Assembly: GCA_964573695.1 (NCBI GenBank)
Contig: CAZNKB010000001.1
Location: 132,497-196,496, forward strand
Origin: an uncultured Gammaproteobacteria bacterium
Lineage (GTDB): Bacteria; Patescibacteriota; Microgenomatia; UBA10105; UBA927
DNA length: 64,000 bases
Direction: 5' to 3'
In this document: one piece after another, positions 41,926 to 52,280 of the stretch
Layout: every line of letters begins with the position of its first letter
How positions within the stretch are numbered: the stretch's first letter is position 1
Position numbers and translations under genes: made by a program
Notes under the pieces: model-generated
The model's input: only the letters and a program-made list of their open reading frames with translations
What the model was told of the DNA's origin: nothing
Databases searched by the model: none

Positions 41926-41938
41926 TGTTAAATAAATT

Positions 41939-42098
41939 ATAGCAGGCACGTAAGTTATTTTGGGTGGGACTACCTTGTAAGTGGGACCGCTTGGAATCGG
42001 ACCAAGTACATCGATCTTATAGCAGGCACGTAAGTTATTTTGGGTGGGACTACCTTGTAAGTGGGACCGCTTGGAATCGGACCAAGTACATCGATCTT
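41939..42098. repeat. Perfect 80-bp tandem duplication (2 copies: 41939-42018 and 42019-42098)
   Basis: ATAGCAGGCACGTAAGTTATTTTGGGTGGGACTACCTTGTAAGTGGGACCGCTTGGAATCGGACCAAGTACATCGATCTT occurs twice head-to-tail with no mismatch. Confidence 0.9.
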
Positions 42099-42253
42099 AT
42101 AAGGATCGCGTTCTACCAATGAACTACGGTCCCCTACACTTTACACCCAAAATATTAATGTTCGTGCCTGATATATCGAAAACATCAATAGTAGAATCTA
42201 CAATGGTTGTTTTCGCTATAAGGATCGCGTTCTACCAATGAACTACGGTCCCC
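42099..42253. repeat. 36-bp perfect direct repeat (42099-42134 and 42218-42253) flanking an 83-bp spacer with inverted complementarity to the 80-bp unit
   Basis: ATAAGGATCGCGTTCTACCAATGAACTACGGTCCCC x2. The spacer contains CACCCAAAATATTAATGTTCGTGCCTGAT, an imperfect reverse complement of AGCAGGCACGTAAGTTATTTTGGGTG at the 5' end of the 80-bp unit. Confidence 0.85.
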
Positions 42254-42344
42254 ACAAAATTCACCAAAACGATAACGTTGCCTGACAACGGAAACTATTA
42301 CCCTAACGGTATAGATTGTATCAAAGCTGCAAGACGCGTGCTAC

Positions 42345-43742
42345 TTACGCCTGAAGAAGTTCTTCCATGCGGGCCTCTATTTCATAGGAGCGTTTCTTGG
42401 TTTTGGCAAATATGATAAAAGAAAATTTCTGCATACGCAGTAAATTTTCTGACGTCAGGATGACACCCTCTTTGGTTTCTTTGTTATACAGTATAGGTAA
42501 AAGACGGTCGAACAGCTGTGAAAAAGTAAGCCGTTTGAGATGTGGAACCATATATCCGTTATTGGAAAAAAGATATGTATCGAACATAAAGTTCTCACCG
42601 AACAACGCAACTGCCGTCGCGTAGACGAAGGTTCCGCCGGTACTCCGCACGTTACTCTCTGCGACATAGATGTCTCCGTTTCTCCCCGCGACACAGTCGA
42701 CATCAAAATATCCGCGGTATCCAGCCTGCGCAAATCTCTCTGCTATGTAAAAACCGGTATCCTTTATCTGTGCGGCCACCCTCTCCGGCATAATATCATC
42801 GCCTACCTCAATACCATGAAACTGCCCGCTTTTGTCTACAAGGACGCCACAATGATACAGAAAATCTATATGTCCGTTCCTCGAAATTTTAAATTCGACA
42901 TTGGGGTTTCCTCCGGCGACGCTCATGCTTACCGGTATGAGTTTTTCTATGATAATCGGGAATTGCTGCCAATAGGCATCTTTTTTCAAAAGGTCGAATA
43001 TTTTTTCCTGGCACGCATGAAATTCCACGGGTAAATCCCCGGGTCGAAATATCTCTACCCCAAGACCCGAATGACCTTTATTCGTCTTGATGACGACGCC
43101 CTGCTCTTTTATGTACCTAATAGCGGCAATTTTTGCAGCGTCCTCTATCCCGAAACAGATAACGCCGTCTGCCATTTTGAAATCCGGCTCCTCATTGCTG
43201 CTTTGTTGGGCAAGTTGTCTGATACCCGATTTACTGCCAAAAAAATTTACCGTCCATGCGTCCTCTTCATCCGGGGCGTCGGGCGTAAAGACGGTCAGTC
43301 CTTTTTCACGAAGCGAATGCACCAAATGAAGGAACGGCTGGCTCGCTGAGTAGCTGGTCAGCGTAAGTTTTTTTGTTGAGTTTGCCGCTTCAATAAGCGC
43401 GTTCATGATAGAAGGATCGTGGAGAATATCCTCACAAATAACGCCGCTATGTTGGCCGGTCGTTAACACGGTGAGCTTAGAGTCAGGAAACAACGAGCGA
43501 AAATATGCCAGAAACCGATCGCTCACACTTTGTGGTGTGATATAGAGAACCTCATCTTTTTCCCCGGCGAACTGAAACATCCGTGAGTCGCCCAAGTATC
43601 CGTTCTCAACAATTTCCGCACTCCGGGCGTCTGCGTTAGACATCGCAGAGATAAATGGCCACACGTCCTCAGACATGTTGAATATATATACGAGGACGTT
43701 ATGCTTTTTCTCCGGAACAATTTCTGCTGTCGATCCGTTCAT
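42345..43742 (-). CDS. ATP-grasp-like ligase domain protein (hypothetical)
   Basis: 465 aa. The C-terminal half (...GHSGLGVEIF..., ...YFDVDCVAGRNGDIYVAESNVR...) resembles the ATP-grasp catalytic core. The N-terminal half is unassigned. Confidence 0.4.
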   Translation of the reverse strand: MNGSTAEIVPEKKHNVLVYIFNMSEDVWPFISAMSNADARSAEIVENGYLGDSRMFQFAGEKDEVLYITPQSVSDRFLAYFRSLFPDSKLTVLTTGQHSGVICEDILHDPSIMNALIEAANSTKKLTLTSYSASQPFLHLVHSLREKGLTVFTPDAPDEEDAWTVNFFGSKSGIRQLAQQSSNEEPDFKMADGVICFGIEDAAKIAAIRYIKEQGVVIKTNKGHSGLGVEIFRPGDLPVEFHACQEKIFDLLKKDAYWQQFPIIIEKLIPVSMSVAGGNPNVEFKISRNGHIDFLYHCGVLVDKSGQFHGIEVGDDIMPERVAAQIKDTGFYIAERFAQAGYRGYFDVDCVAGRNGDIYVAESNVRSTGGTFVYATAVALFGENFMFDTYLFSNNGYMVPHLKRLTFSQLFDRLLPILYNKETKEGVILTSENLLRMQKFSFIIFAKTKKRSYEIEARMEELLQA

Positions 43743-43847: not shown

Positions 43848-46196
43848 TTATAATCTCGCCCGCTCCTGAATTTCCGCCTCAATAAGTTCGCGGGCTTGAC
43901 CGTATTTCAATCGGGAGAGTTGAATAATCGCTTTGGCGACTTCCTTGTTTTGCTCAGCGGAAACAACCTTCATGTCTTTCGACAGATCGATACTAAACGG
44001 TTTGACTGGTTCATTATGTACGATTGTTTTGATATACGCATTGTATTTATCAATATTGATGAGATCAATTTCATTAAACGTCGGCTGATATTCATGCTGA
44101 AGATAATTCGCGTCCGTTACTCCAACACGGAATGTGATAAGCGTACCGACGTTTCCGAAAACGGCGTTTTTCACCTCTTCTTCCATTTGTCCGATAAATT
44201 GGTTGGCGACGGTAAGACTAAGTCGATATTTCCGCGCTTCGGAAAGGATTTGCGCGAAATCCGGAGTGGCGAAATTTTGGAACTCGTCGACGTAGAGATA
44301 AAAATCGCGCCGCTTATCTTCGGATACGTCCTGTCTGCTCATCGCGGCAATCAGTATCCTGGGAACCAGAATCAACCCCAAAAAATTACTATTCTCTTCT
44401 CCTAATTTACCCTTGGAAAGATTAACCAGTAATATTTTCCCTTCGTCCATAACTTTCCTGAAATTAAAACTCGACTGCGATTGCCCGATAATATTACGCA
44501 TGAGCTTATTCGTGACGAAGCGTCCGAATTTGGAAACAATGTAATCAAGAACCTCTGATTTATGGAAATCCGCCGTCTGGGCGATTTGATCCGTCCAATA
44601 ACGACGGATGATCGGATCCTGTACTTTGGGCAATAATTCCTGGACAAAGTTACTGTCGGTAAGGATGCGCACTACCTCGATAAACGTGCTTCCCGGTTCG
44701 CTCATTACCGTCAACATGGCGTTTCTGACTGCGTGTTCGAACCGCGGCCCGATAATGCCCGTTTTCTGCGGATCATACAACTTATACATAAGTCCCACGA
44801 TAGATGTCACGACAAAATGTTTCTGCTCCTCCGTTTCCGCCTCCAACATATTGAGTCCCATAGGCCGTTCGGTATCCGAAGGATCAAAATAAATCACATC
44901 CTCCGCACGATCGGCCGGAATACGAGCAAGTATTCCGTCGATCAAATCCCCGTGCGGATCAATGACGGCAAGCCCTTTGCCGGCCTTGATATCCTGAATG
45001 ACGAGCTCTTCAAGGAGTTGCGATTTACCCGTACCCGTTTTTCCAATGACGTACATATGACGACGGCGATCCTCATCACCTATATATATCGGACGATCCA
45101 TACCCCTATATCTGGATATACCGATGAACTGACCGCTGGAAGCTATCTGCATCGGTGCCGGCGCGCGCTTGGCATTCAGCCAAAAAATATGGGGTGTTTC
45201 GACTGATTTATTCGGGAGATGATAAATGGTAGCTAACTCATCGCTGTTGAGCACCCCGTATTGTTTGAAAAATGGCAGATTCACCATGGGAAAATACCGG
45301 TAAATAAAATCGATCATAAAAAACTTCCTCATGGGATGTTTTACTTTCGAAAAATGATTATGATCCGAGGTAAACTGATGAAACGATGTAATGAGGTTTT
45401 CCAGATGTGCATCGGCGGCCTCTTTGGTTGTCGAGCTGACGACTAGCCGAATGACAGTGTTGAATCCAGGTTTCGAGACTTTCTGTTCAATGGATTCAAG
45501 CGTTTTCGGGTCGACCTTGAAGCTTGCTTTCTCGGGATTTGCTTCGTTTTTCTTCGTTTTGGATATGTATGATCTCCCAAGCCCCGCCCATTTGCTATCC
45601 GCCGGCTGAATAAGGATCTGAATGGCAGCCCCCTCGCCTTCGGACATTTTTGCAAGAACCGATGTCAGTGACGAAAGCGGATCTATCGGAAGATCGCGAT
45701 ATATCCGGATCGGGAGGTAATCGGAATTTTTGGGAGTAAGGGCAGCAAACGAGACTTTACCGGTTTCACTGAATATATTGTACTCATCGACGATTCTCAG
45801 ATCCGCACCGGGATATGAACCGTGTATCTGTTTTTCAATCAAATCGACAAAATGTTTGGGCGCTGCGATATAAAACCGTATATCTTCACGCTTAGCCACT
45901 ATCTCAAACGATATGTGCTCCTGTGGCTTGAGAAATGACCAAAATCCGCCATGATGAAGCGAGTGTAAACTGGCGAACATTTGTTCTGCTGCATCGATTT
46001 TTATCTCGTTGTCCCGCGGCGTCGCCACCTGAATGAGGGTATATTCCATGGAGTGTTTTTCCCGGTCACGATATTTCCACAAAATAAACAACGCGTATCC
46101 CAAAGCGGCAAACCCGATAAGACAAAACGTCAGGATTATAAGTGATATCCCCAATACTTCCAGCTGATAGGTGATGTCGGCAAATTCTAACGGCAT
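43848..46196 (-). CDS. VirB4/VirD4 (TraG/TraD)-type FtsK-HerA superfamily P-loop ATPase with N-terminal TM helix and ~330-aa uncharacterised extracytoplasmic domain
   Basis: Start taken at MPLEFAD (46194-46196). One TM (LGISLIILTFCLIGFAALGYALFILW). Walker A YVIGKTGTGKSQLLEEL, Walker B/DEAH-like LYVDEFQNF, and a C-terminal KYRLSLTVANQ segment typical of T4SS coupling/DNA-transfer ATPases. Confidence 0.6.
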   Translation of the reverse strand: MPLEFADITYQLEVLGISLIILTFCLIGFAALGYALFILWKYRDREKHSMEYTLIQVATPRDNEIKIDAAEQMFASLHSLHHGGFWSFLKPQEHISFEIVAKREDIRFYIAAPKHFVDLIEKQIHGSYPGADLRIVDEYNIFSETGKVSFAALTPKNSDYLPIRIYRDLPIDPLSSLTSVLAKMSEGEGAAIQILIQPADSKWAGLGRSYISKTKKNEANPEKASFKVDPKTLESIEQKVSKPGFNTVIRLVVSSTTKEAADAHLENLITSFHQFTSDHNHFSKVKHPMRKFFMIDFIYRYFPMVNLPFFKQYGVLNSDELATIYHLPNKSVETPHIFWLNAKRAPAPMQIASSGQFIGISRYRGMDRPIYIGDEDRRRHMYVIGKTGTGKSQLLEELVIQDIKAGKGLAVIDPHGDLIDGILARIPADRAEDVIYFDPSDTERPMGLNMLEAETEEQKHFVVTSIVGLMYKLYDPQKTGIIGPRFEHAVRNAMLTVMSEPGSTFIEVVRILTDSNFVQELLPKVQDPIIRRYWTDQIAQTADFHKSEVLDYIVSKFGRFVTNKLMRNIIGQSQSSFNFRKVMDEGKILLVNLSKGKLGEENSNFLGLILVPRILIAAMSRQDVSEDKRRDFYLYVDEFQNFATPDFAQILSEARKYRLSLTVANQFIGQMEEEVKNAVFGNVGTLITFRVGVTDANYLQHEYQPTFNEIDLINIDKYNAYIKTIVHNEPVKPFSIDLSKDMKVVSAEQNKEVAKAIIQLSRLKYGQARELIEAEIQERARL

Positions 46197-46200
46197 AACA

Positions 46201-46647
46201 TTATGATACTTTCGTTCGCACGGTTTTTCCGGAAATAGATGTGATCGTAAGGTGTACTTGTTGCAGCTGTCTCTTGCACCACTCGGCAAGCCAGCGCCAT
46301 GACGAAAGAATACTCTGATGAAGTCCTTTGGCGATTTGGTCGTCGGTAAGTGGAAGTGCTATGGTCGGCGGAGGGGCAGCTATCGCGACGGAGTCTCCCA
46401 AAGGCGCTACTCCCATACGCTCAACGATTTTGGGCAACACGACCGAATCAGAGCGCATTCTCACGCCGGCTTTGGCAACCTCGGCCGGTAGCTCGGTTTC
46501 TTTACCAAATTCCGTAATAACAGGCGATTCGACCGGTGCGGGTGAAAGCGGGGCTACTTCTTTTGCCATGCTTCCTGTTCTCGTCTGCGGAGACGGCGGC
46601 GCAGGAGTCGATGATGATGTGCTAGGCAGGGTGTCCATATAATTCAT
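46201..46647 (-). CDS. Hypothetical Pro/Ser-rich 148-aa protein, translationally coupled to the downstream ATPase
   Basis: Start chosen at MNYMD (46645-46647). Its stop abuts the ATG of the ATPase gene. Low-complexity PAPPSP/PAPVESP N-terminus, conserved-looking C-terminus (WRWLAEWCKRQL). Confidence 0.35.
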   Translation of the reverse strand: MNYMDTLPSTSSSTPAPPSPQTRTGSMAKEVAPLSPAPVESPVITEFGKETELPAEVAKAGVRMRSDSVVLPKIVERMGVAPLGDSVAIAAPPPTIALPLTDDQIAKGLHQSILSSWRWLAEWCKRQLQQVHLTITSISGKTVRTKVS

Positions 46648-46651
46648 TCTA

Positions 46652-48664
46652 TCATGAAGCAAAGGCAAATATGATGCCTCGCTGTGGCAAATCTCCCTTT
46701 CTTCTTTTTCGCTTGGGGCGCCCCCCGTTCGTTTGCGGCACGGCGACCTGTACTCCCGGCTGGCCGGATTCCCGAAGCAACACAAGATACCGAATTATCG
46801 CAAGCATGATCCATGGAGCTTGTACTGTTTCACCTTGTGCTCCTGTCGCCTCTGTGTCCCGTACGCTGTCACGATGCGCTTTTTTTGTTTTATTGGCATG
46901 TGGCACTTCCGACCTCGCAGGGTATGACACGATCCACGAAAGAATGAGTGCAAATATGAAGCGTCCGGTAATTATGGTCCTATGTTCCAGCGTATTCTCT
47001 TGCGCGGTAGCCACATCGGGAATTGCGATACGCCGCTTGTCTTGGTCCGAACGCGGATAAGGAGCCGGTAGCGGAAGAAAAAATAGCCGCGCAAGAACCT
47101 GCATGACTTCAACCCATTGGGGCACGTTCTTTTGGGCCGGTATGGTGTTTTTTTCAATGCCGCTATAGCGTTTGCCCTGAATGAAGGTGTCAGTGCGATG
47201 TAACTCAGGAACCGATGTCATCAAGCCTACCTTCTCACGTGGCGACCCTCCTAACACGCCATTCATCCTGGTAATAAATGCGCGCCACATGATCTCTACA
47301 GGAGACCCCGAAGATATGCGTTCTTTCTTTATGTGGTTCCGCAAAATTTCTGGCGCTCCAGATTTAAGCCTCTTCTCAATATTCTTTTCTGCTTCCCCAA
47401 GGAAGGCAAACCAATGCATCGTGGCGACAGATGCCACCGGCAATACGGGTCCGTAGGCTATCATAGTTTGTGTTATCCACCATTCGGACAATATGGATTT
47501 TGGATCAACGAGTGACGAGCTCTTCTCCGGGGAAATTACGGTTATTTTTTTCTCACCCGCAGGGGAATGTTTCCCTTCTTTTGTCACACGAAGCGAATTT
47601 TTGCTGTTCCCAGGTTCAATTCTTATTGGTTTTGTGTCAGTTTTTCGCACGTAGGGGACGCTGTTTTTCTGTTTCAGCGCTTGGATTTTATCTTCGATTT
47701 GATCGCGTACATAGGCGGCAATACGGGAGACTGAGTGGGCTGCATCAGCGATAGCAGGATTATGAGAAATCTGTTCCTGAGAGCGAACTGTTCTTGTCTC
47801 ACGCGCGTAAGATACGGTCTTATCCCCGGCGAACTGGGCTATAGCTATAGTGCGGATATCTTCGGCATAAATGGATCCCTTCGTTACAAAAAAGTGCGCA
47901 TACGAATTTGTCTCTTGTGGTCTATCTTCCTGAGTACTCTTACCATGGAACTCAGAAAGATGATGCATAAGATCTTTTGCTTCTTCCGAAGAAAAATCTT
48001 TGCCGGTCGTCGCGTATAAATCGATCTGCTGCGATATCACGTCGCCGCTTTCTGACTTTTGCCAAACCTGGACGTAGCGCACGGCATCCGGATGAGACAA
48101 CACACTCACGAACCCGTTTGACGAACCGTGTACCAATTTATCCTGCATAAGAAGCTGCGCCTCATGTTCCTGTTTGTTATACGCTTGGGGATTCCCGACG
48201 AATTCCGAATATTCTTTGGTGTGCTCCCACAGTTGTGAAAGCGTCACCATTTTTCCTCCGTACTCGGTTGCAAGCTCCACGCTTCCTGTACTTGTTTGTA
48301 TGGGGCGCCAACGCACGACGGATTCTTCGTGAGCAGCCTCTTTGTGTTCGTAGGACAAATCCTGCGCAAGACGCGCTTTAAACCGGTCGACGGCATGTTC
48401 ATGAACCTGTGCGTGACTCCAATCTGGATGTTCAAGGGCAACTTCCGGCTCTATAAAATGCATGAGGGAATATGTGGCTGCCTCAGAATTGAAACTGTGG
48501 TCCCCCCGCCAAACGGGGGCATCACCCTCTCCGTCGGTGTCTCCGATAACTTGTATACCCCGAAGTGTCATACGGTCTATATACCGTTCATGTTGCTCGG
48601 AGTCACCACGCATTTGCCGTGTAAACCGCGAAGAAATATCGTATGTCGGAGATGGTTTCTCCAT
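46652..48664 (-). CDS. Large hypothetical protein (670 aa) with C-terminal hydrophobic helices and basic tail; first gene of the ATPase operon
   Basis: Long uninterrupted ORF with ordinary, non-low-complexity composition, no motif I recognise, and two C-terminal hydrophobic segments followed by KRKRRK. Four nucleotides separate it from the next gene. Confidence 0.45.
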   Translation of the reverse strand: MEKPSPTYDISSRFTRQMRGDSEQHERYIDRMTLRGIQVIGDTDGEGDAPVWRGDHSFNSEAATYSLMHFIEPEVALEHPDWSHAQVHEHAVDRFKARLAQDLSYEHKEAAHEESVVRWRPIQTSTGSVELATEYGGKMVTLSQLWEHTKEYSEFVGNPQAYNKQEHEAQLLMQDKLVHGSSNGFVSVLSHPDAVRYVQVWQKSESGDVISQQIDLYATTGKDFSSEEAKDLMHHLSEFHGKSTQEDRPQETNSYAHFFVTKGSIYAEDIRTIAIAQFAGDKTVSYARETRTVRSQEQISHNPAIADAAHSVSRIAAYVRDQIEDKIQALKQKNSVPYVRKTDTKPIRIEPGNSKNSLRVTKEGKHSPAGEKKITVISPEKSSSLVDPKSILSEWWITQTMIAYGPVLPVASVATMHWFAFLGEAEKNIEKRLKSGAPEILRNHIKKERISSGSPVEIMWRAFITRMNGVLGGSPREKVGLMTSVPELHRTDTFIQGKRYSGIEKNTIPAQKNVPQWVEVMQVLARLFFLPLPAPYPRSDQDKRRIAIPDVATAQENTLEHRTIITGRFIFALILSWIVSYPARSEVPHANKTKKAHRDSVRDTEATGAQGETVQAPWIMLAIIRYLVLLRESGQPGVQVAVPQTNGGRPKRKRRKGDLPQRGIIFAFAS

Positions 48665-48785
48665 AAATGCTCCTGCTCGGGATTTGCAAGGGAGAGTTCC
48701 GGACTTTCCGCCAAGCAGCGGATTACCGTTGCGGCACAGTCGCTGAATTACACAGCGTTCCTCATGCCCTTACGTATGCTTCTTT

Positions 48786-49337
48786 TTACTTCTTTTGCGA
48801 CGTCCGGTCAATACCTGACCAGGTTACTTCAACAATACCTGCTTCGTGATTTATAAATCTGGCGAGCATAAAAAGCAGATCCGATAACCGATTGAGATAG
48901 ATAAATATTTTCGGATCGACTTCCTGTTTTTGCCCCAATGCTACCGTTTGCCGTTCGACTCTCCGGCATACTGCCCGAGACAGGTGAATCTCGGACGCGA
49001 GTTTGGTTCCTCCCGGGAGGATAAAATTTTTGAGTTTCGGCAATGTATCATCAAGGATATCTATCCGCTCTTCCATTTCCTTGACCCGGGTAAGGATGTG
49101 CTTCAAATCCGTCGTCCAACCTGCAAGATGACTCCCTATCGTAAACAGGTCGGATTGTATTGCAGAAAGAAACGCCTGTACGTCGGGAGACTGTATGTCG
49201 CTTGCGACTTTGCCGATCCAGGAGTTCAGCTCGTCTATGGATCCGTACACATCCACAAGCTCCTCACACTTGAGTACACGCTTGCCGCCAAAAAGTGACG
49301 TAGATCCGGTATCACCGGTTTTTGTGTAGATAGGCAT
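48786..49337 (-). CDS. pduO: ATP:cob(I)alamin adenosyltransferase, PduO/MMAB type
   Basis: MPIYTKTGDTGSTSLFGGKRV, the canonical PduO-type N-terminus. ~184 aa. Confidence 0.75.
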   Translation of the reverse strand: MPIYTKTGDTGSTSLFGGKRVLKCEELVDVYGSIDELNSWIGKVASDIQSPDVQAFLSAIQSDLFTIGSHLAGWTTDLKHILTRVKEMEERIDILDDTLPKLKNFILPGGTKLASEIHLSRAVCRRVERQTVALGQKQEVDPKIFIYLNRLSDLLFMLARFINHEAGIVEVTWSGIDRTSQKK

Positions 49338-49381
49338 ACGTTTTTTTATCGTTCCCGATGTAACGAGCGGTGATACCACCG

Positions 49382-51820
49382 TTAACACTCCGAATACCCG
49401 CATGAGTAGCATTTCTTGCAGGACTCCTCAAAGACAAGGCTCCCTTCACCGCAGCTCGGACACAAGTCGACCGTCACCATACGGCGCTCGGTAAGCAACA
49501 TCTGGGTTGCCGGCACCGTCATCGGCTTGTCTGCCGGCTCTACATTCGGCCCGGGTGTCGCCGGCACGTGACCGTTACCATTGCTATTTGCCGTATGTCC
49601 ATTTGCCGAAAGAGGATTAATCGGAGCATCAACCCTGTGTTTTGCAAAAAATCCGAAATGCCGATCGATCACTTTTGCCACGGCATCAGGCAATGACCGG
49701 ACTCTGTTCTCCCCAAATCCCAAACTTCTGGCTCCCCCGATTCCGATAAGCTCACTCGCTACTCTATGTGCACGTTCCATTGGGGAAATCGGCGAGGCGA
49801 CCCGAAGGACCAGTGAAATCAATCTTCCCATAGCTTCCGCCATGGCCGTCACATCGCTTCCTGCCTTCCCGACGTTTACAAATACCTCGAGAGGCTGTTC
49901 TCCGCCGTTGGTGTTTATCGTGATATACGCCTGCCCCATAGGGGTTTCCAGCTGATACGTCGACCCGTGTACCACGGCAGGTCTGGGCTTTACCTCGGCG
50001 GTCATCATGGGGGACGCAACCTGCTTCACTTCTTCCTTTTTAGTTTCTTCCTCCTTGCGCACCAATACGCCTTCCCGACTCCCCTCGCGCATATATGCAA
50101 TTCCTTTGCATCCCAATTCATATGCGAGCGTGTACAAACGCTTGACGTCTTCTATCGTGTGCGTCTTCGGGGCGTTGACGGTTTTGGAAATCGATGCGTC
50201 GACATACTGCTGAATAGCCGCCTGTACGCGCACATGATCTTCCGGAGACAAGTCGTTTGCCGACACGAAATATTCCGGCCGATCCTCACGGGTTGGCTCT
50301 CGACCGTGTTCGATTTTAAACGTCTGGAACCATGCTTCATACAGCGGATGCCGGAGGATATGTTCGCCAAGCCGATCCCGGCGGATAAACTCAAATTCAT
50401 ACACCGGCTCTATGCCGCTTGAGACACCCGCCATAAGCGACGTGCTCCCTGTCGGCGCCTGCTGCAGGATAACGGAATTTCGCACGCCGTACCGTTTCAT
50501 CTTTTTCCGGATTGTCTCCGGCAATTTTTTTATGAAATACGCATCCAGATGCTTTGATTTGTTTATTTTGGGGAACGCACCTTTTTCTTTTGCCAGCTCC
50601 ACCGACGATTCATAAGCGGCATCCCGAATGATCCTGTATATTTTGTCGATAACCGAAAGGCTTTCCTCTGATCCGTATCGGAGCTTCATCTTAATCAAGG
50701 CGTCTCCAAGTCCCATGGTGCCGAGGCCGATCCGGCGCTCGCCATGAAGCTGTACTTCTTTTATCTGGTCAAAGACATAATAATCCGCATCAATTATGTC
50801 GTCCTGGAAACGGACTCCTATTTTGGCTACCTGGGCAAGGCGCTCGAAGTCCATTTCCCCTTTATCGTTGACAAGGGCTGCAAGATTGATCGACGTCAAG
50901 TTGCATACCCCCCAGTTCGGTAGCCCTTCTTCGCCACAGGGATTGACGCAGTTGACGTATTCAAAGTACGAATTGTTAAACCATTTATTGTACCGCTCCA
51001 TAAACACCACCCCTGGCTCGGCGCTTTTCCATGCAGCGGTAGCAATGAGATCCCAAAGCGCCCTGGCTTTTACGGTTTTCTGGACAATGGGCTTTTTGCC
51101 AAGTGCGATCCAGTTAGGCAGGTACCCATCCCATTTCGTGTCATAATCCGGATCGTGAGTATCAGGAAAACAGAGATTCCAATCCTCATCCTTTTTGACC
51201 GCCTCCATAAAAGCATCGGAAACGCACACGGAAAGATTCGCGCCGTTAATCCTGTGGAGATCCTGTTTTACGGTGATAAATTCTTCTATGTCGGGATGCC
51301 AGTCCCACAACATCAGCATGAGTGCCCCTCTGCGGCTCCCTCCCTGCTGGATGATGTCTTTTGTCGCGACGGAAAATAATTCCGCCCAATTGCAGGGACC
51401 GGAAGAAAACCCATTTACCTTTTGCACGCGCGAACCCCTCGGGCGAAGACTTGAAAGATTGATACCAACTCCCCCGCCCCGTGACATGATCTCTACCATT
51501 TGCGAAAGGGTTGCGAGGATGCCTCCGCGCGAATCATGCGGACTCGGGATAACGAAACAATTATAAAAGGTGACTTTGTACCCCGTCCCTGCACCGGAAA
51601 GAATCCGTCCACCCGGGACAAGTACGAAATCACGCATGGCGTCATAGAACTTCTCTTCCCAGAGTTTGCGGTCTTCTTTTTTTTCTATCAAAGCAACTGC
51701 ACCGGCGACCCTGCGCCACATTTCTTCGGGCGTCTGCTCAATAGCCGTGCCCTGTTCGTCTTTCCTGGCGTAACGATCAGCAAATACGGTTTTTCGGATT
51801 CCGGTAAGATTTGTATCCAT
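49382..51820 (-). CDS. nrdJ: Adenosylcobalamin-dependent ribonucleotide reductase, class II (NrdJ), with C-terminal Cys4 zinc ribbon
   Basis: Class II RNR active-site region (NPCGEEGLPNWGVCNLTSINL, thiyl-radical Cys), B12-binding region, and C-terminal CPSCGEG...CKKCYSCGY. 812 aa. Confidence 0.9.
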   Translation of the reverse strand: MDTNLTGIRKTVFADRYARKDEQGTAIEQTPEEMWRRVAGAVALIEKKEDRKLWEEKFYDAMRDFVLVPGGRILSGAGTGYKVTFYNCFVIPSPHDSRGGILATLSQMVEIMSRGGGVGINLSSLRPRGSRVQKVNGFSSGPCNWAELFSVATKDIIQQGGSRRGALMLMLWDWHPDIEEFITVKQDLHRINGANLSVCVSDAFMEAVKKDEDWNLCFPDTHDPDYDTKWDGYLPNWIALGKKPIVQKTVKARALWDLIATAAWKSAEPGVVFMERYNKWFNNSYFEYVNCVNPCGEEGLPNWGVCNLTSINLAALVNDKGEMDFERLAQVAKIGVRFQDDIIDADYYVFDQIKEVQLHGERRIGLGTMGLGDALIKMKLRYGSEESLSVIDKIYRIIRDAAYESSVELAKEKGAFPKINKSKHLDAYFIKKLPETIRKKMKRYGVRNSVILQQAPTGSTSLMAGVSSGIEPVYEFEFIRRDRLGEHILRHPLYEAWFQTFKIEHGREPTREDRPEYFVSANDLSPEDHVRVQAAIQQYVDASISKTVNAPKTHTIEDVKRLYTLAYELGCKGIAYMREGSREGVLVRKEEETKKEEVKQVASPMMTAEVKPRPAVVHGSTYQLETPMGQAYITINTNGGEQPLEVFVNVGKAGSDVTAMAEAMGRLISLVLRVASPISPMERAHRVASELIGIGGARSLGFGENRVRSLPDAVAKVIDRHFGFFAKHRVDAPINPLSANGHTANSNGNGHVPATPGPNVEPADKPMTVPATQMLLTERRMVTVDLCPSCGEGSLVFEESCKKCYSCGYSEC

Positions 51821-51824
51821 ATAG

Positions 51825-52280
51825 TTATTTCTTTTTGATAAGTTTTTTTAGCTCACCCTCGAATTCATCGAGATCGACAAATTGTTTAAATACGCTTGCA
51901 AACCGAATATAGGCTATCTTATCCAATTTCTTGAGGCGCTTGGCCACCAGCTCTCCTATTTTCTTGCTCGGTAATTCCGTCGTATTCCCGCCGATAAGCT
52001 CCCGCTCCACCTCGTCGACAATTCTCCGTACGTCATCGCCTTTTAACGTCGTCTTACCGCTCGCCCGCCAGATCCCCCGTTCGAGTTTTTCCCGGTCAAA
52101 CGGCTCGCGCCGCTTATCTTTCTTAATCACGGTAAGCGGCACCGTTTCAATCCGTTCATATGTCGTAAACCGCTTCGCGCACTTGCTGCAGCCTCTTCTT
52201 CGTCTCGTGACGGCAAGATCCTCGCTATCTCTTGTTTCTATGACCTCCGTGTCGTTGTTCGTGCAATATGGACATTTCAT
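51825..52280 (-). CDS. nrdR: Transcriptional repressor NrdR
   Basis: MKCPYCTNNDTEVIETR...CSKCAKRFTTYERIE zinc ribbon plus ATP-cone domain. 151 aa. Confidence 0.9.
   Translation of the reverse strand: MKCPYCTNNDTEVIETRDSEDLAVTRRRRGCSKCAKRFTTYERIETVPLTVIKKDKRREPFDREKLERGIWRASGKTTLKGDDVRRIVDEVERELIGGNTTELPSKKIGELVAKRLKKLDKIAYIRFASVFKQFVDLDEFEGELKKLIKKK

Follow-up and report, generated by a model that had tools for sequence, protein, structure and literature searches.

What a VirD4-type coupling ATPase is kept for, in the chromosome of an ultra-small bacterium, beside two proteins of no recognisable family and next to genes of vitamin B12 utilisation, is the question raised by a locus on contig CAZNKB010000001.1 (assembly GCA_964573695.1). 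The 64,000-nt stretch of this contig that was analysed is referred to here as the window, and all coordinates are window positions. Three genes on its minus strand encode a 670-aa protein, a 148-aa protein and a 782-aa ATPase of the T4CP class (type IV coupling proteins). The most informative feature of the locus, missed in a preliminary description of this DNA, is a cobalamin riboswitch directly upstream of the 670-aa gene, inside a B12-utilisation neighbourhood. We consider it very probable that these elements form a conserved riboswitch-led operon containing an exapted T4CP. That the operon functions in response to B12 limitation is a tentative proposal, and the blended reading, of an exapted coupling ATPase operon within the B12 regulon that probably serves during B12 limitation, is about evenly balanced. 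The elements are as follows.

48669-48790, minus strand: cobalamin (B12) riboswitch aptamer, starting at the pduO stop codon (Rfam and a local covariance model)
46652-48664, minus strand: gene of the 670-aa protein, here called the slot protein (open reading frame, ORF; ATG at 48664)
46201-46647, minus strand: gene of the 148-aa protein (ORF)
43848-46196, minus strand: gene of the 782-aa ATPase, DUF8128 plus VirD4/T4CP-like (Pfam, NCBIfam and PDB sequence matches)

The aptamer fills the 121-nt spacer between pduO and the 670-aa gene and ends about 5-10 nt before the ATG of the latter. Rfam family RF00174 (clan CL00101) matches positions 48674-48786 of the minus strand over model positions 1-189, with 31.3 bits and an E value of 3e-6. 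A gathering-threshold Rfam search missed the aptamer because 31.3 bits is less than the required 31.5; the aptamers of two related loci (L002 and L003; loci used for comparison carry L numbers) also score about 31 bits against RF00174, so that standard Rfam annotation misses them as well. The match skips peripheral segments of 23 and 62 model positions, which we take to be typical of the short class-II cobalamin aptamers of the methylcobalamin/hydroxocobalamin (MeCbl/HyCbl) type. An AGGAG Shine-Dalgarno sequence (48670-48674) abuts the 3' end of the aptamer and, in the minimum free energy fold, is paired with CUCC of the B12-box strand.

The comparison set consisted of two long contigs and 80 GTDB species loci whose ATPase is 68-95% identical to that of the window. 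A local covariance model, R1, was built from 16 of the local aptamer copies; it scores the window aptamer at 102.5 bits and detects 64 copies, all on the ATPase strand, one of them in the window and the others in the loci of 61 relatives. The aptamer is present in 56 of the 57 loci with a full 8-kb upstream flank, L061 being the sole exception, and in 5 shorter loci. Across the 64 copies every cell (100%) of the modelled helices is paired, and compensatory changes occur in 141 cells, against 37 in shuffled alignments, none of 500 shuffles reaching 141. By its conserved structure, its covariation and its B12-related context, 48669-48790 is a putative cobalamin riboswitch.

The genes that directly follow the aptamer fall into four arrangements.

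At least 30 loci: slot gene recognised by hidden Markov model
14 loci: DUF4430 gene (13 found by script, plus L076 by Pfam)
11 loci: divergent ORF of 438-836 aa in the slot
4 loci: ORF of about 157 aa, then the slot gene

The ORF of about 157 aa lies between aptamer and slot gene in L060 (5026-5496), L063, L066 and L078; the L060 copy, the only one scanned, is a GNAT acetyltransferase by Pfam, and the other three have similar termini. Many relatives share the order nrdR-nrdJ-pduO-riboswitch-DUF4430-DUF6580-slot gene-148-aa gene-ATPase, and loci without a slot gene read aptamer-DUF4430-DUF6580-148-aa gene-ATPase with gaps of 0-40 nt. Transcobalamin-type B12 binders carry DUF4430 as their C-terminal domain (PMC4350170). 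Neither DUF4430 nor DUF6580 occurs anywhere in the 64-kb window, and many relatives lack both; the window and several relatives nevertheless keep an intact aptamer, fused to the slot gene. The region from aptamer to slot gene was compared between the window (48664-48790), L001 (6455-7516), L002 (6420-7522) and L010 (5254-5541), and in L010 an apparent remnant of a transporter-gene start, ATGAAAAAAATATAC, persists between the two. This pattern points to repeated secondary loss of the corrinoid-uptake-type DUF4430 and DUF6580 genes with retention of the riboswitch. In L052, L054 and L059 the aptamer stands between DUF6580 and the slot gene, while L062 and L064 carry two aptamers, one ahead of DUF4430 and one ahead of the slot gene. 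That the aptamer outlives DUF4430 and DUF6580, precedes the slot gene and gains dedicated copies argues for selection acting on the B12 control of the slot-148-ATPase string itself.

The locus is part of a larger syntenic block, nrdR-nrdJ-pduO-…-ATPase-ATP-grasp-tRNA-Ile-NUDIX-TsaD, shared by the two long contigs and the 80 species loci. The three genes upstream of the riboswitch, which precede the ATPase in nearly all relatives with enough flanking sequence, are located as follows.

48786-49412, minus strand: pduO-type cobalamin adenosyltransferase (Pfam)
49382-51820, minus strand: nrdJ, B12-dependent class II ribonucleotide reductase (RNR; Pfam)
51825-52280, minus strand: nrdR (Pfam)

At least 60 species carry the locus as a fixed single copy. 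In 48 matched loci, median identity to the window protein is 78.0% for the ATPase, 77.6% for NrdJ, 59.8% for PduO and 43.5% for the 148-aa protein; the ATPase thus matches NrdJ and must be under housekeeping-level constraint. It is uncoupled from relaxase and VirB4 genes and is as conserved as an essential RNR. The relatives are labelled Gottesmanbacteria, Microgenomates or Woesebacteria, and it is well supported that the trio is a vertically inherited chromosomal operon of Gottesmanbacteria-type Patescibacteria, ultra-small bacteria of the candidate phyla radiation (CPR). Dozens of GTDB records with the locus are titled “uncultured Gammaproteobacteria bacterium” (binchicken co-assemblies; L006, L011, L014-L016 and others); as they carry a Gottesmanbacteria-specific syntenic locus, these titles are evidently wrong.

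The trio had been described as lying in an accessory-looking stretch of the window, and a genomic island was considered. This was rejected on the basis of the conserved synteny (80 species) and the GC content of 0.478 for the trio against 0.486 for the window, which amounts to no compositional deviation; no integrase was found among the scanned window ORFs. Synteny over about 60-80 species also bears on the possibility, raised in the preliminary description, that the neighbours are ordinary housekeeping genes in conserved order: the order is indeed conserved, but neither partner protein is annotated as the product of a housekeeping gene. Ordinary core genes make up the other large ORFs of the window, among them those for UvrD-type helicases, MurJ, GroEL and a penicillin-binding protein (PBP).

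The tight packing of three co-directional minus-strand genes, noted from the outset, holds, and the ATG of the 148-aa gene lies 4 nt after the stop codon of the 670-aa gene. The stop-to-ATG junction assigned to the ATPase, and with it a length of 813 aa, had to be revised: the ATG that overlaps the 148-aa stop codon (TAATG) is not in the ATPase reading frame, and the first in-frame ATG, at 46196, lies 4 nt past that stop and gives 782 aa, the length of nearly all homologs. The single N-terminal transmembrane (TM) helix and both Walker boxes were confirmed. The features of the ATPase are as follows.

43848-46289, minus strand: ATPase ORF as first called, corrected to the gene 43848-46196 (782 aa)
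46077-46157, minus strand: TM helix, residues 14-40 (Kyte-Doolittle hydropathy, KD, 2.66)
About 45087-46049, minus strand: DUF8128 domain (PF26449, precomputed annotation)
43848-45086, minus strand: nucleotide-binding domain
45021-45044, minus strand: Walker A, GKTGTGKS (residues 385-392)
44277-44294, minus strand: Walker B, YVDEFQ (residues 635-640)

The one strong TM helix is followed by KYRDREK; classical T4CPs usually have two. Four Pfam families match above their gathering cut-offs (GA): T4SS-DNA_transf (29.8 bits, GA 20.1), TrwB_AAD_bind (28.4 bits, GA 20.5), TraG-D_C (26.4 bits, GA 22) and DUF87. The top PDB sequence matches are TrwB and DotL. Matches to the NCBIfam TraD and CD1115 T4CP families fall below the equivalog cut-offs, marking the ATPase as a distant T4CP member. 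The Walker boxes are about 250 residues apart, which leaves room for an all-alpha domain inserted in the nucleotide-binding domain, but the TrwB_AAD_bind match spans only residues 377-441. Of the earlier assignment to a VirB4/VirD4-type ATPase of the FtsK/HerA superfamily with a TraG/TraD-like C-terminus, the VirD4/TraD part is borne out by the Pfam and PDB matches and the VirB4 part is not: a VirB4/CagE ATPase was rejected because no full-length family match was obtained, TIGR00929 scoring 27.8 bits against a cut-off of 643. CedD, an archaeal ATPase of DNA import, is matched weakly and over the Walker A region only. The N-terminal domain of about 330 residues, first thought to be novel, is Pfam PF26449/DUF8128, which precomputed Pfam annotation assigns to the identical database protein (P0001) and to every homolog listed, and is common to the T4CPs of Tcp-like conjugation operons. 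Judged by these matches, the ATPase genuinely, if distantly, belongs to a monoderm T4CP subfamily.

Full-length homologs of the ATPase were found in 45 phage records of the Bacillus group and on 354 plasmids of Bacillus, Streptomyces, Staphylococcus, Clostridium, haloarchaea and Sulfolobus. A Bacillus plasmid ATPase aligns over residues 51-759 (24% identity, E 6e-53) and is the first gene of a Tcp-like conjugation operon that continues with Replic_Relax, TcpC, TcpE and AAA_10/VirB4-like genes; examples are BMMGA3_RS16220 of pBM69 (L087) and AAYR29_RS00155 of a plasmid of B. subtilis FUA2231 (L086). Among the phages, gp156 of phage G (L085) lies beside TraG-P-loop/VirB4-like and TrbL/VirB6-like genes, and gp91 of phage CP-51 (L084) beside a Replic_Relax gene. 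The plasmid and phage ATPases share with the CPR protein a DUF8128-type N-domain joined to a VirD4/HerA-like nucleotide-binding domain with the same Walker motifs and spacing. They differ from it in adjoining Replic_Relax, TcpC, TcpE, AAA_10/VirB4-like or TrbL-like genes, none of which lies near the CPR gene; compared with the plasmid proteins, the CPR protein has an extra N-terminal TM helix and lacks a long acidic C-terminal tail. No partner resembling the 148-aa or 670-aa protein was found upstream of the plasmid T4CPs, and, unlike these homologs, the CPR gene lies on the chromosome, is inherited vertically and has a riboswitch ahead of it. The ancestors of the ATPase were T4CPs of monoderm Tcp-like conjugation systems, and here it has been exapted. 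The comparison shows DUF8128 to be the usual N-domain of a T4CP subfamily that is widespread among monoderms, archaea and phages. On a Haladaptatus plasmid (L089, 5905-9727) the DUF8128-homologous region forms a separate 350-aa gene directly upstream of a T4CP-like ATPase; with its own gene in haloarchaeal plasmids, the N-domain is a separable module. MOB-suite typed 301 of the 354 plasmid matches as non-mobilizable, some of them (L086, L087) with complete-looking Tcp-like operons.

The reported lack of T4SS (type IV secretion system) partners nearby was confirmed: no VirB4, VirB6 or relaxase was found among the ten largest other ORFs of the window, all of which are housekeeping genes, and no VirB4 or relaxase in the annotated flanks of the relatives. 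The conjugation or DNA-uptake reading offered for the trio thus stands without a relaxase or VirB4, and linkage of the ATPase to a relaxase or a VirB4-type T4SS was seen neither among the large ORFs of the window nor in those flanks. Orphan T4CPs are common in Patescibacteria. A recent survey (Quinonero-Coronel et al. 2025, PMC12102498) counts 5,713 VirD4-type T4CPs in 2,918 of 3,035 genomes, only 148 of them near virB4, and states that their exaptation “cannot be ruled out”. The window ATPase belongs to the same VirD4-like class, whose members mostly lie far from virB4, and the passages of the survey consulted here make no mention of a 148-aa partner, a modular slot protein, a cobalamin riboswitch or a link to B12. 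Literature searches on DUF8128, and on cobalamin riboswitches together with Patescibacteria, CPR or DUF4430, returned no relevant paper. The ATPase class and its orphan status in Patescibacteria were already known; the obligate 148-aa partner, the modular slot protein, whose N-domain has no structural match, and the place of the unit in the cobalamin regulon appear not to have been described, as judged by this literature search.

The 148-aa protein is the constant companion of the ATPase. It has 86 homologs; all 79 informative loci have one of them directly upstream of the ATPase, and the 80th locus is cut at a contig edge. Pro, Ser and Ala are abundant in the protein, which lacks a TM segment and contains short conserved motifs (GSMAKE; E.GK-E.ELP.EV..AGV; LPLTDDQIA.GL). 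Its C-terminal helix SSWRWLAEWC is invariant and strongly amphipathic, with a hydrophobic moment of 1.27. As a mostly disordered protein with an invariant amphipathic C-terminal helix, it can be read as an adaptor. An “LAEW”-type motif is common to this helix (46264-46305) and to the helix that starts the C-terminal module of the 670-aa protein (47465-47488; consensus KSxLAEWxI); it could be a common docking motif or could have arisen by chance. That the two upstream proteins belong to no recognisable family, as stated before, is supported by zero matches for either in Pfam, NCBIfam, PADLOC and PHROGs.

The 670-aa slot protein is, by contrast with the conserved C-terminal part of its own chain, variable at its N-terminus: a variable N-terminal domain is joined by a helical linker to a conserved C-terminal module.

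47795-48517 (about residues 50-290), minus strand: N-terminal alpha/beta domain
46652-47512, minus strand: conserved C-terminal module

Invariant polar motifs of the N-domain include WRGDH (residues 52-56), LWEHTKEY (145-152) and SHPDAVRYVQVW (190-201). The C-module contains helices, including PWIMLAIIRYLVLLRESG (617-634), followed by the polybasic sequence RPKRKRRK and a hydrophobic tail, GIIFAFAS; the polybasic cluster is conserved across the family. Divergence is rapid: among 83 homologs collected by word index, identity drops from 100% through 81% and 47% to 30%, whereas the ATPase remains at least 95% identical in those same contigs. When 1.84e9 representatives were searched exhaustively with a profile of the family, 324 clusters were returned, of which about 80 match at full length and about 240 over the C-terminal half only. 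Likewise, the ORF of 440-830 aa that occupies the slot upstream of the 148-aa gene in the species loci mostly matches in the C-module only. The family profile gave only noise against PDB sequences, a permissive Pfam scan (E up to 10) of the sub-domains gave nothing credible, and no Pfam domain was found in 61 distant C-module relatives and 8 alternative slot proteins; the only recognisable slot-region genes are GNAT in L060 and DUF4430 in L076 (Pfam). An integral membrane protein of the VirB6-like channel type was judged unlikely from the hydropathy of the family, which averages about 1.0, with 51 of 82 members having no segment of KD 1.6 or more. A relaxase is unsupported, as there is no HUH or Replic_Relax signature and the N-domain is the variable part.

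The make-up of the operon is well supported; it comprises, in order, the riboswitch, the 670-aa slot protein, the 148-aa protein, the membrane-anchored DUF8128/VirD4-type ATPase and possibly an ATP-grasp ligase. For the way it works we propose a model. Known cobalamin riboswitches are almost all OFF switches, and they control genes of B12 uptake or biosynthesis or B12-independent bypass enzymes. Since such riboswitches mostly turn expression off and the Shine-Dalgarno sequence abuts the aptamer, we infer that the operon is translated under B12 scarcity. The 4-nt gaps would then pass riboswitch control on to the 148-aa protein and the ATPase via translational coupling. The ATPase and the 148-aa protein would form an invariant core, the latter acting as adaptor, and the 670-aa protein would be a variable client recognised by its conserved C-module, much as T4CPs read C-terminal signals. 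The client may be translocated or presented at the membrane, where its swappable N-domain would do lineage-specific work; the most likely purpose of the system would be acquiring or handling corrinoids from the host or the environment. A bolder version, which we find somewhat doubtful, is a B12-responsive translocation system whose T4CP-type motor exports or displays a hypervariable corrinoid-capturing or corrinoid-liberating protein, or imports DNA or deoxynucleotides that bypass NrdJ; the 148-aa protein would then count as a novel adaptor of T4CPs, and the N-domain of the 670-aa protein as a novel fold.

The proposed model can be compared with the corrinoid uptake operons controlled by cobalamin riboswitches, in which a DUF4430-type binder is combined with a small membrane component (btuFCD and ECF-CbrT types). 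The riboswitch belongs to the same RF00174 family, the neighbours are B12-enzyme genes, and in relatives the same aptamer heads DUF4430-DUF6580. The difference lies in the genes, which are here those of a T4CP-type motor and two proteins of unknown fold, with no recognised transporter.

Several points weigh against a role in B12 limitation. To our knowledge, P-loop hexameric T4CP motors move DNA or proteins, not small molecules, and no B12-binding motif or domain was found in the three proteins. The 670-aa protein has no signal peptide, and no interaction data were detectable for it. Five species (L034, L048, L053, L055 and L065) lack the slot gene, which must therefore be dispensable for the core pair of ATPase and 148-aa protein. 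The window aptamer falls 0.2 bits short of the RF00174 gathering score of 31.5. That the 148-aa gene and the ATPase are transcribed together with the riboswitch-led gene is suggested by spacing only, and the AlphaFold2 (AF2) model of ATPase residues 1-370, made from a shallow alignment (at least 68% identity), is unusable, with a mean pLDDT (predicted local distance difference test) of 44.5. The B12 link is seen within one lineage (ATPase identity 68-95%) and could be lineage-specific wiring or inherited gene order. Finally, T4CP homologs are near-universal in Patescibacteria (PMC12102498), which suggests a general function.

The function of T4SS-unlinked VirD4-type ATPases, present in nearly every Patescibacteria genome, is a recognised open question (PMC12102498). 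The present locus offers handles on it: an obligate small partner, a modular client with a conserved C-module, and vitamin B12 as a ligand-defined regulatory input. If the B12 link is functional, the operon would represent a new kind of cobalamin-regulon member and would tie a secretion-type motor to cofactor scavenging, a central problem for auxotrophic epibionts; if it reflects no more than inherited gene order, the readings of the locus as an island, a defence module or a conjugation system are corrected all the same.

The alternative that survives best, although we think it unlikely, is that the orphan T4CP and the 148-aa adaptor feed the 670-aa protein, as a host-directed effector, to a distant VirB4-type T4SS, the B12 link being either incidental (inherited from B12-transporter neighbours) or a starvation cue. 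The conserved C-module, swappable N-domain and very fast divergence of the slot protein mirror the X-Tfe effectors of the antibacterial T4SS of Xanthomonas, in which diverse N-domains are joined to a conserved C-terminal domain and tail (XVIPCD) bound by VirD4 (PMC8740702); the slot protein has a polybasic C-terminus, the plasmid and phage homologs of the ATPase work within T4SS modules, and in most Patescibacteria a T4SS is encoded elsewhere and the T4CP genes are not linked to it (PMC12102498). The resemblance to X-Tfe proteins does not extend to sequence similarity: the C-module is helical with a polybasic cluster and a hydrophobic tail, whereas XVIPCD has an alpha-alpha-beta-beta-beta fold with a Gln-rich tail, and recognition of the C-module by the ATPase is only putative. 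Nor is the slot gene accompanied by an immunity-like gene. In Southlakia epibionticum the T4CP homolog was not essential for epibiotic growth, unlike other T4SS genes (PMC12102498). The aptamer outlasts the transporter genes, mostly abuts the slot gene and is present in a second, dedicated copy in L062 and L064, which argues that B12 control is selected and not incidental.

A B12-sparing bypass, in which the riboswitch would de-repress acquisition of DNA or deoxynucleotides by a T4CP motor when NrdJ is short of cofactor, is improbable in our estimation. B12 riboswitches reportedly control B12-independent isozymes such as metE and class I RNR genes, and this operon adjoins nrdR-nrdJ-pduO under a cobalamin riboswitch. 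The relatives of the ATPase are DNA-transfer coupling proteins, one weak match is to the DNA-import ATPase CedD, and invariant His, Asp and Glu residues are numerous in the slot N-domain, as in metal-dependent hydrolases. The CedD match is, however, limited to the Walker A region, T4CPs normally export, no nuclease, DNA-binding or channel domain was detected, and a hypervariable, sometimes missing slot gene is unexpected for a metabolic bypass.

The suggestion of an anti-phage defence role for the trio, in which a HerA/FtsK-like ATPase would work with unknown partners, is now very hard to sustain: a PADLOC match to mad8 (E 2.8e-16), weak HerA matches (about 1e-6) and a hypervariable slot gene speak for it, but the PADLOC matches are confined to the generic P-loop domain, MADS/HerA partner genes are absent, the neighbours are housekeeping genes, and neither the 670-aa nor the 148-aa protein has a PADLOC match. 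Defence systems are typically patchy, and this locus is single-copy and fixed, with an ATPase conserved like NrdJ; this conservation, together with the missing partner genes, led to the rejection of the defence reading. That the trio is what remains of an integrated conjugative or mobilisable element beside a tRNA gene is just as remote a possibility, since, for all the conjugative T4CP ancestry of the ATPase and the tRNA-Ile with duplicated half-gene fragments 1.7 kb downstream, no integrase, relaxase or VirB4 was found in the scanned window ORFs, composition does not deviate, the gene order is identical, tRNA included, across dozens of species, and the ATPase is under strong purifying selection.

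Downstream of the ATPase, the riboswitch strand continues with one further gene and a hairpin.

42345-43742, minus strand: pre-ATP-grasp/ATP-grasp ligase-like gene (Pfam PreAtp-grasp), 105 nt downstream of the ATPase
42276-42290: terminator-like hairpin just after the ATP-grasp gene

The ATP-grasp gene, which has weak NCBIfam matches to amino-acid ligases such as BesA and LdmS, is kept downstream of the ATPase in 52 loci. Apart from a weak site within the ATPase gene, the hairpin is the sole terminator-like site downstream on the riboswitch strand, and the ATP-grasp gene is possibly the last gene of the same transcription unit.

The gene of tRNA-Ile(TAT), at 42061-42133 of the minus strand, lies 1.7 kb downstream of the trio and is flanked by exact extra copies of both its halves (window 41937-42253): an 80-nt perfect tandem duplication includes the 3' half, and a 37-nt perfect repeat the 5' half. 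All half copies break in the anticodon loop at the junction of CTTATA and AG. In L010 (12020-12358), three increasingly diverged copies of each half share this breakpoint; as L010 represents an independent species, the duplication is not an assembly artefact. The half copies could be att scars of an integrase or the relic of an intron or homing event.

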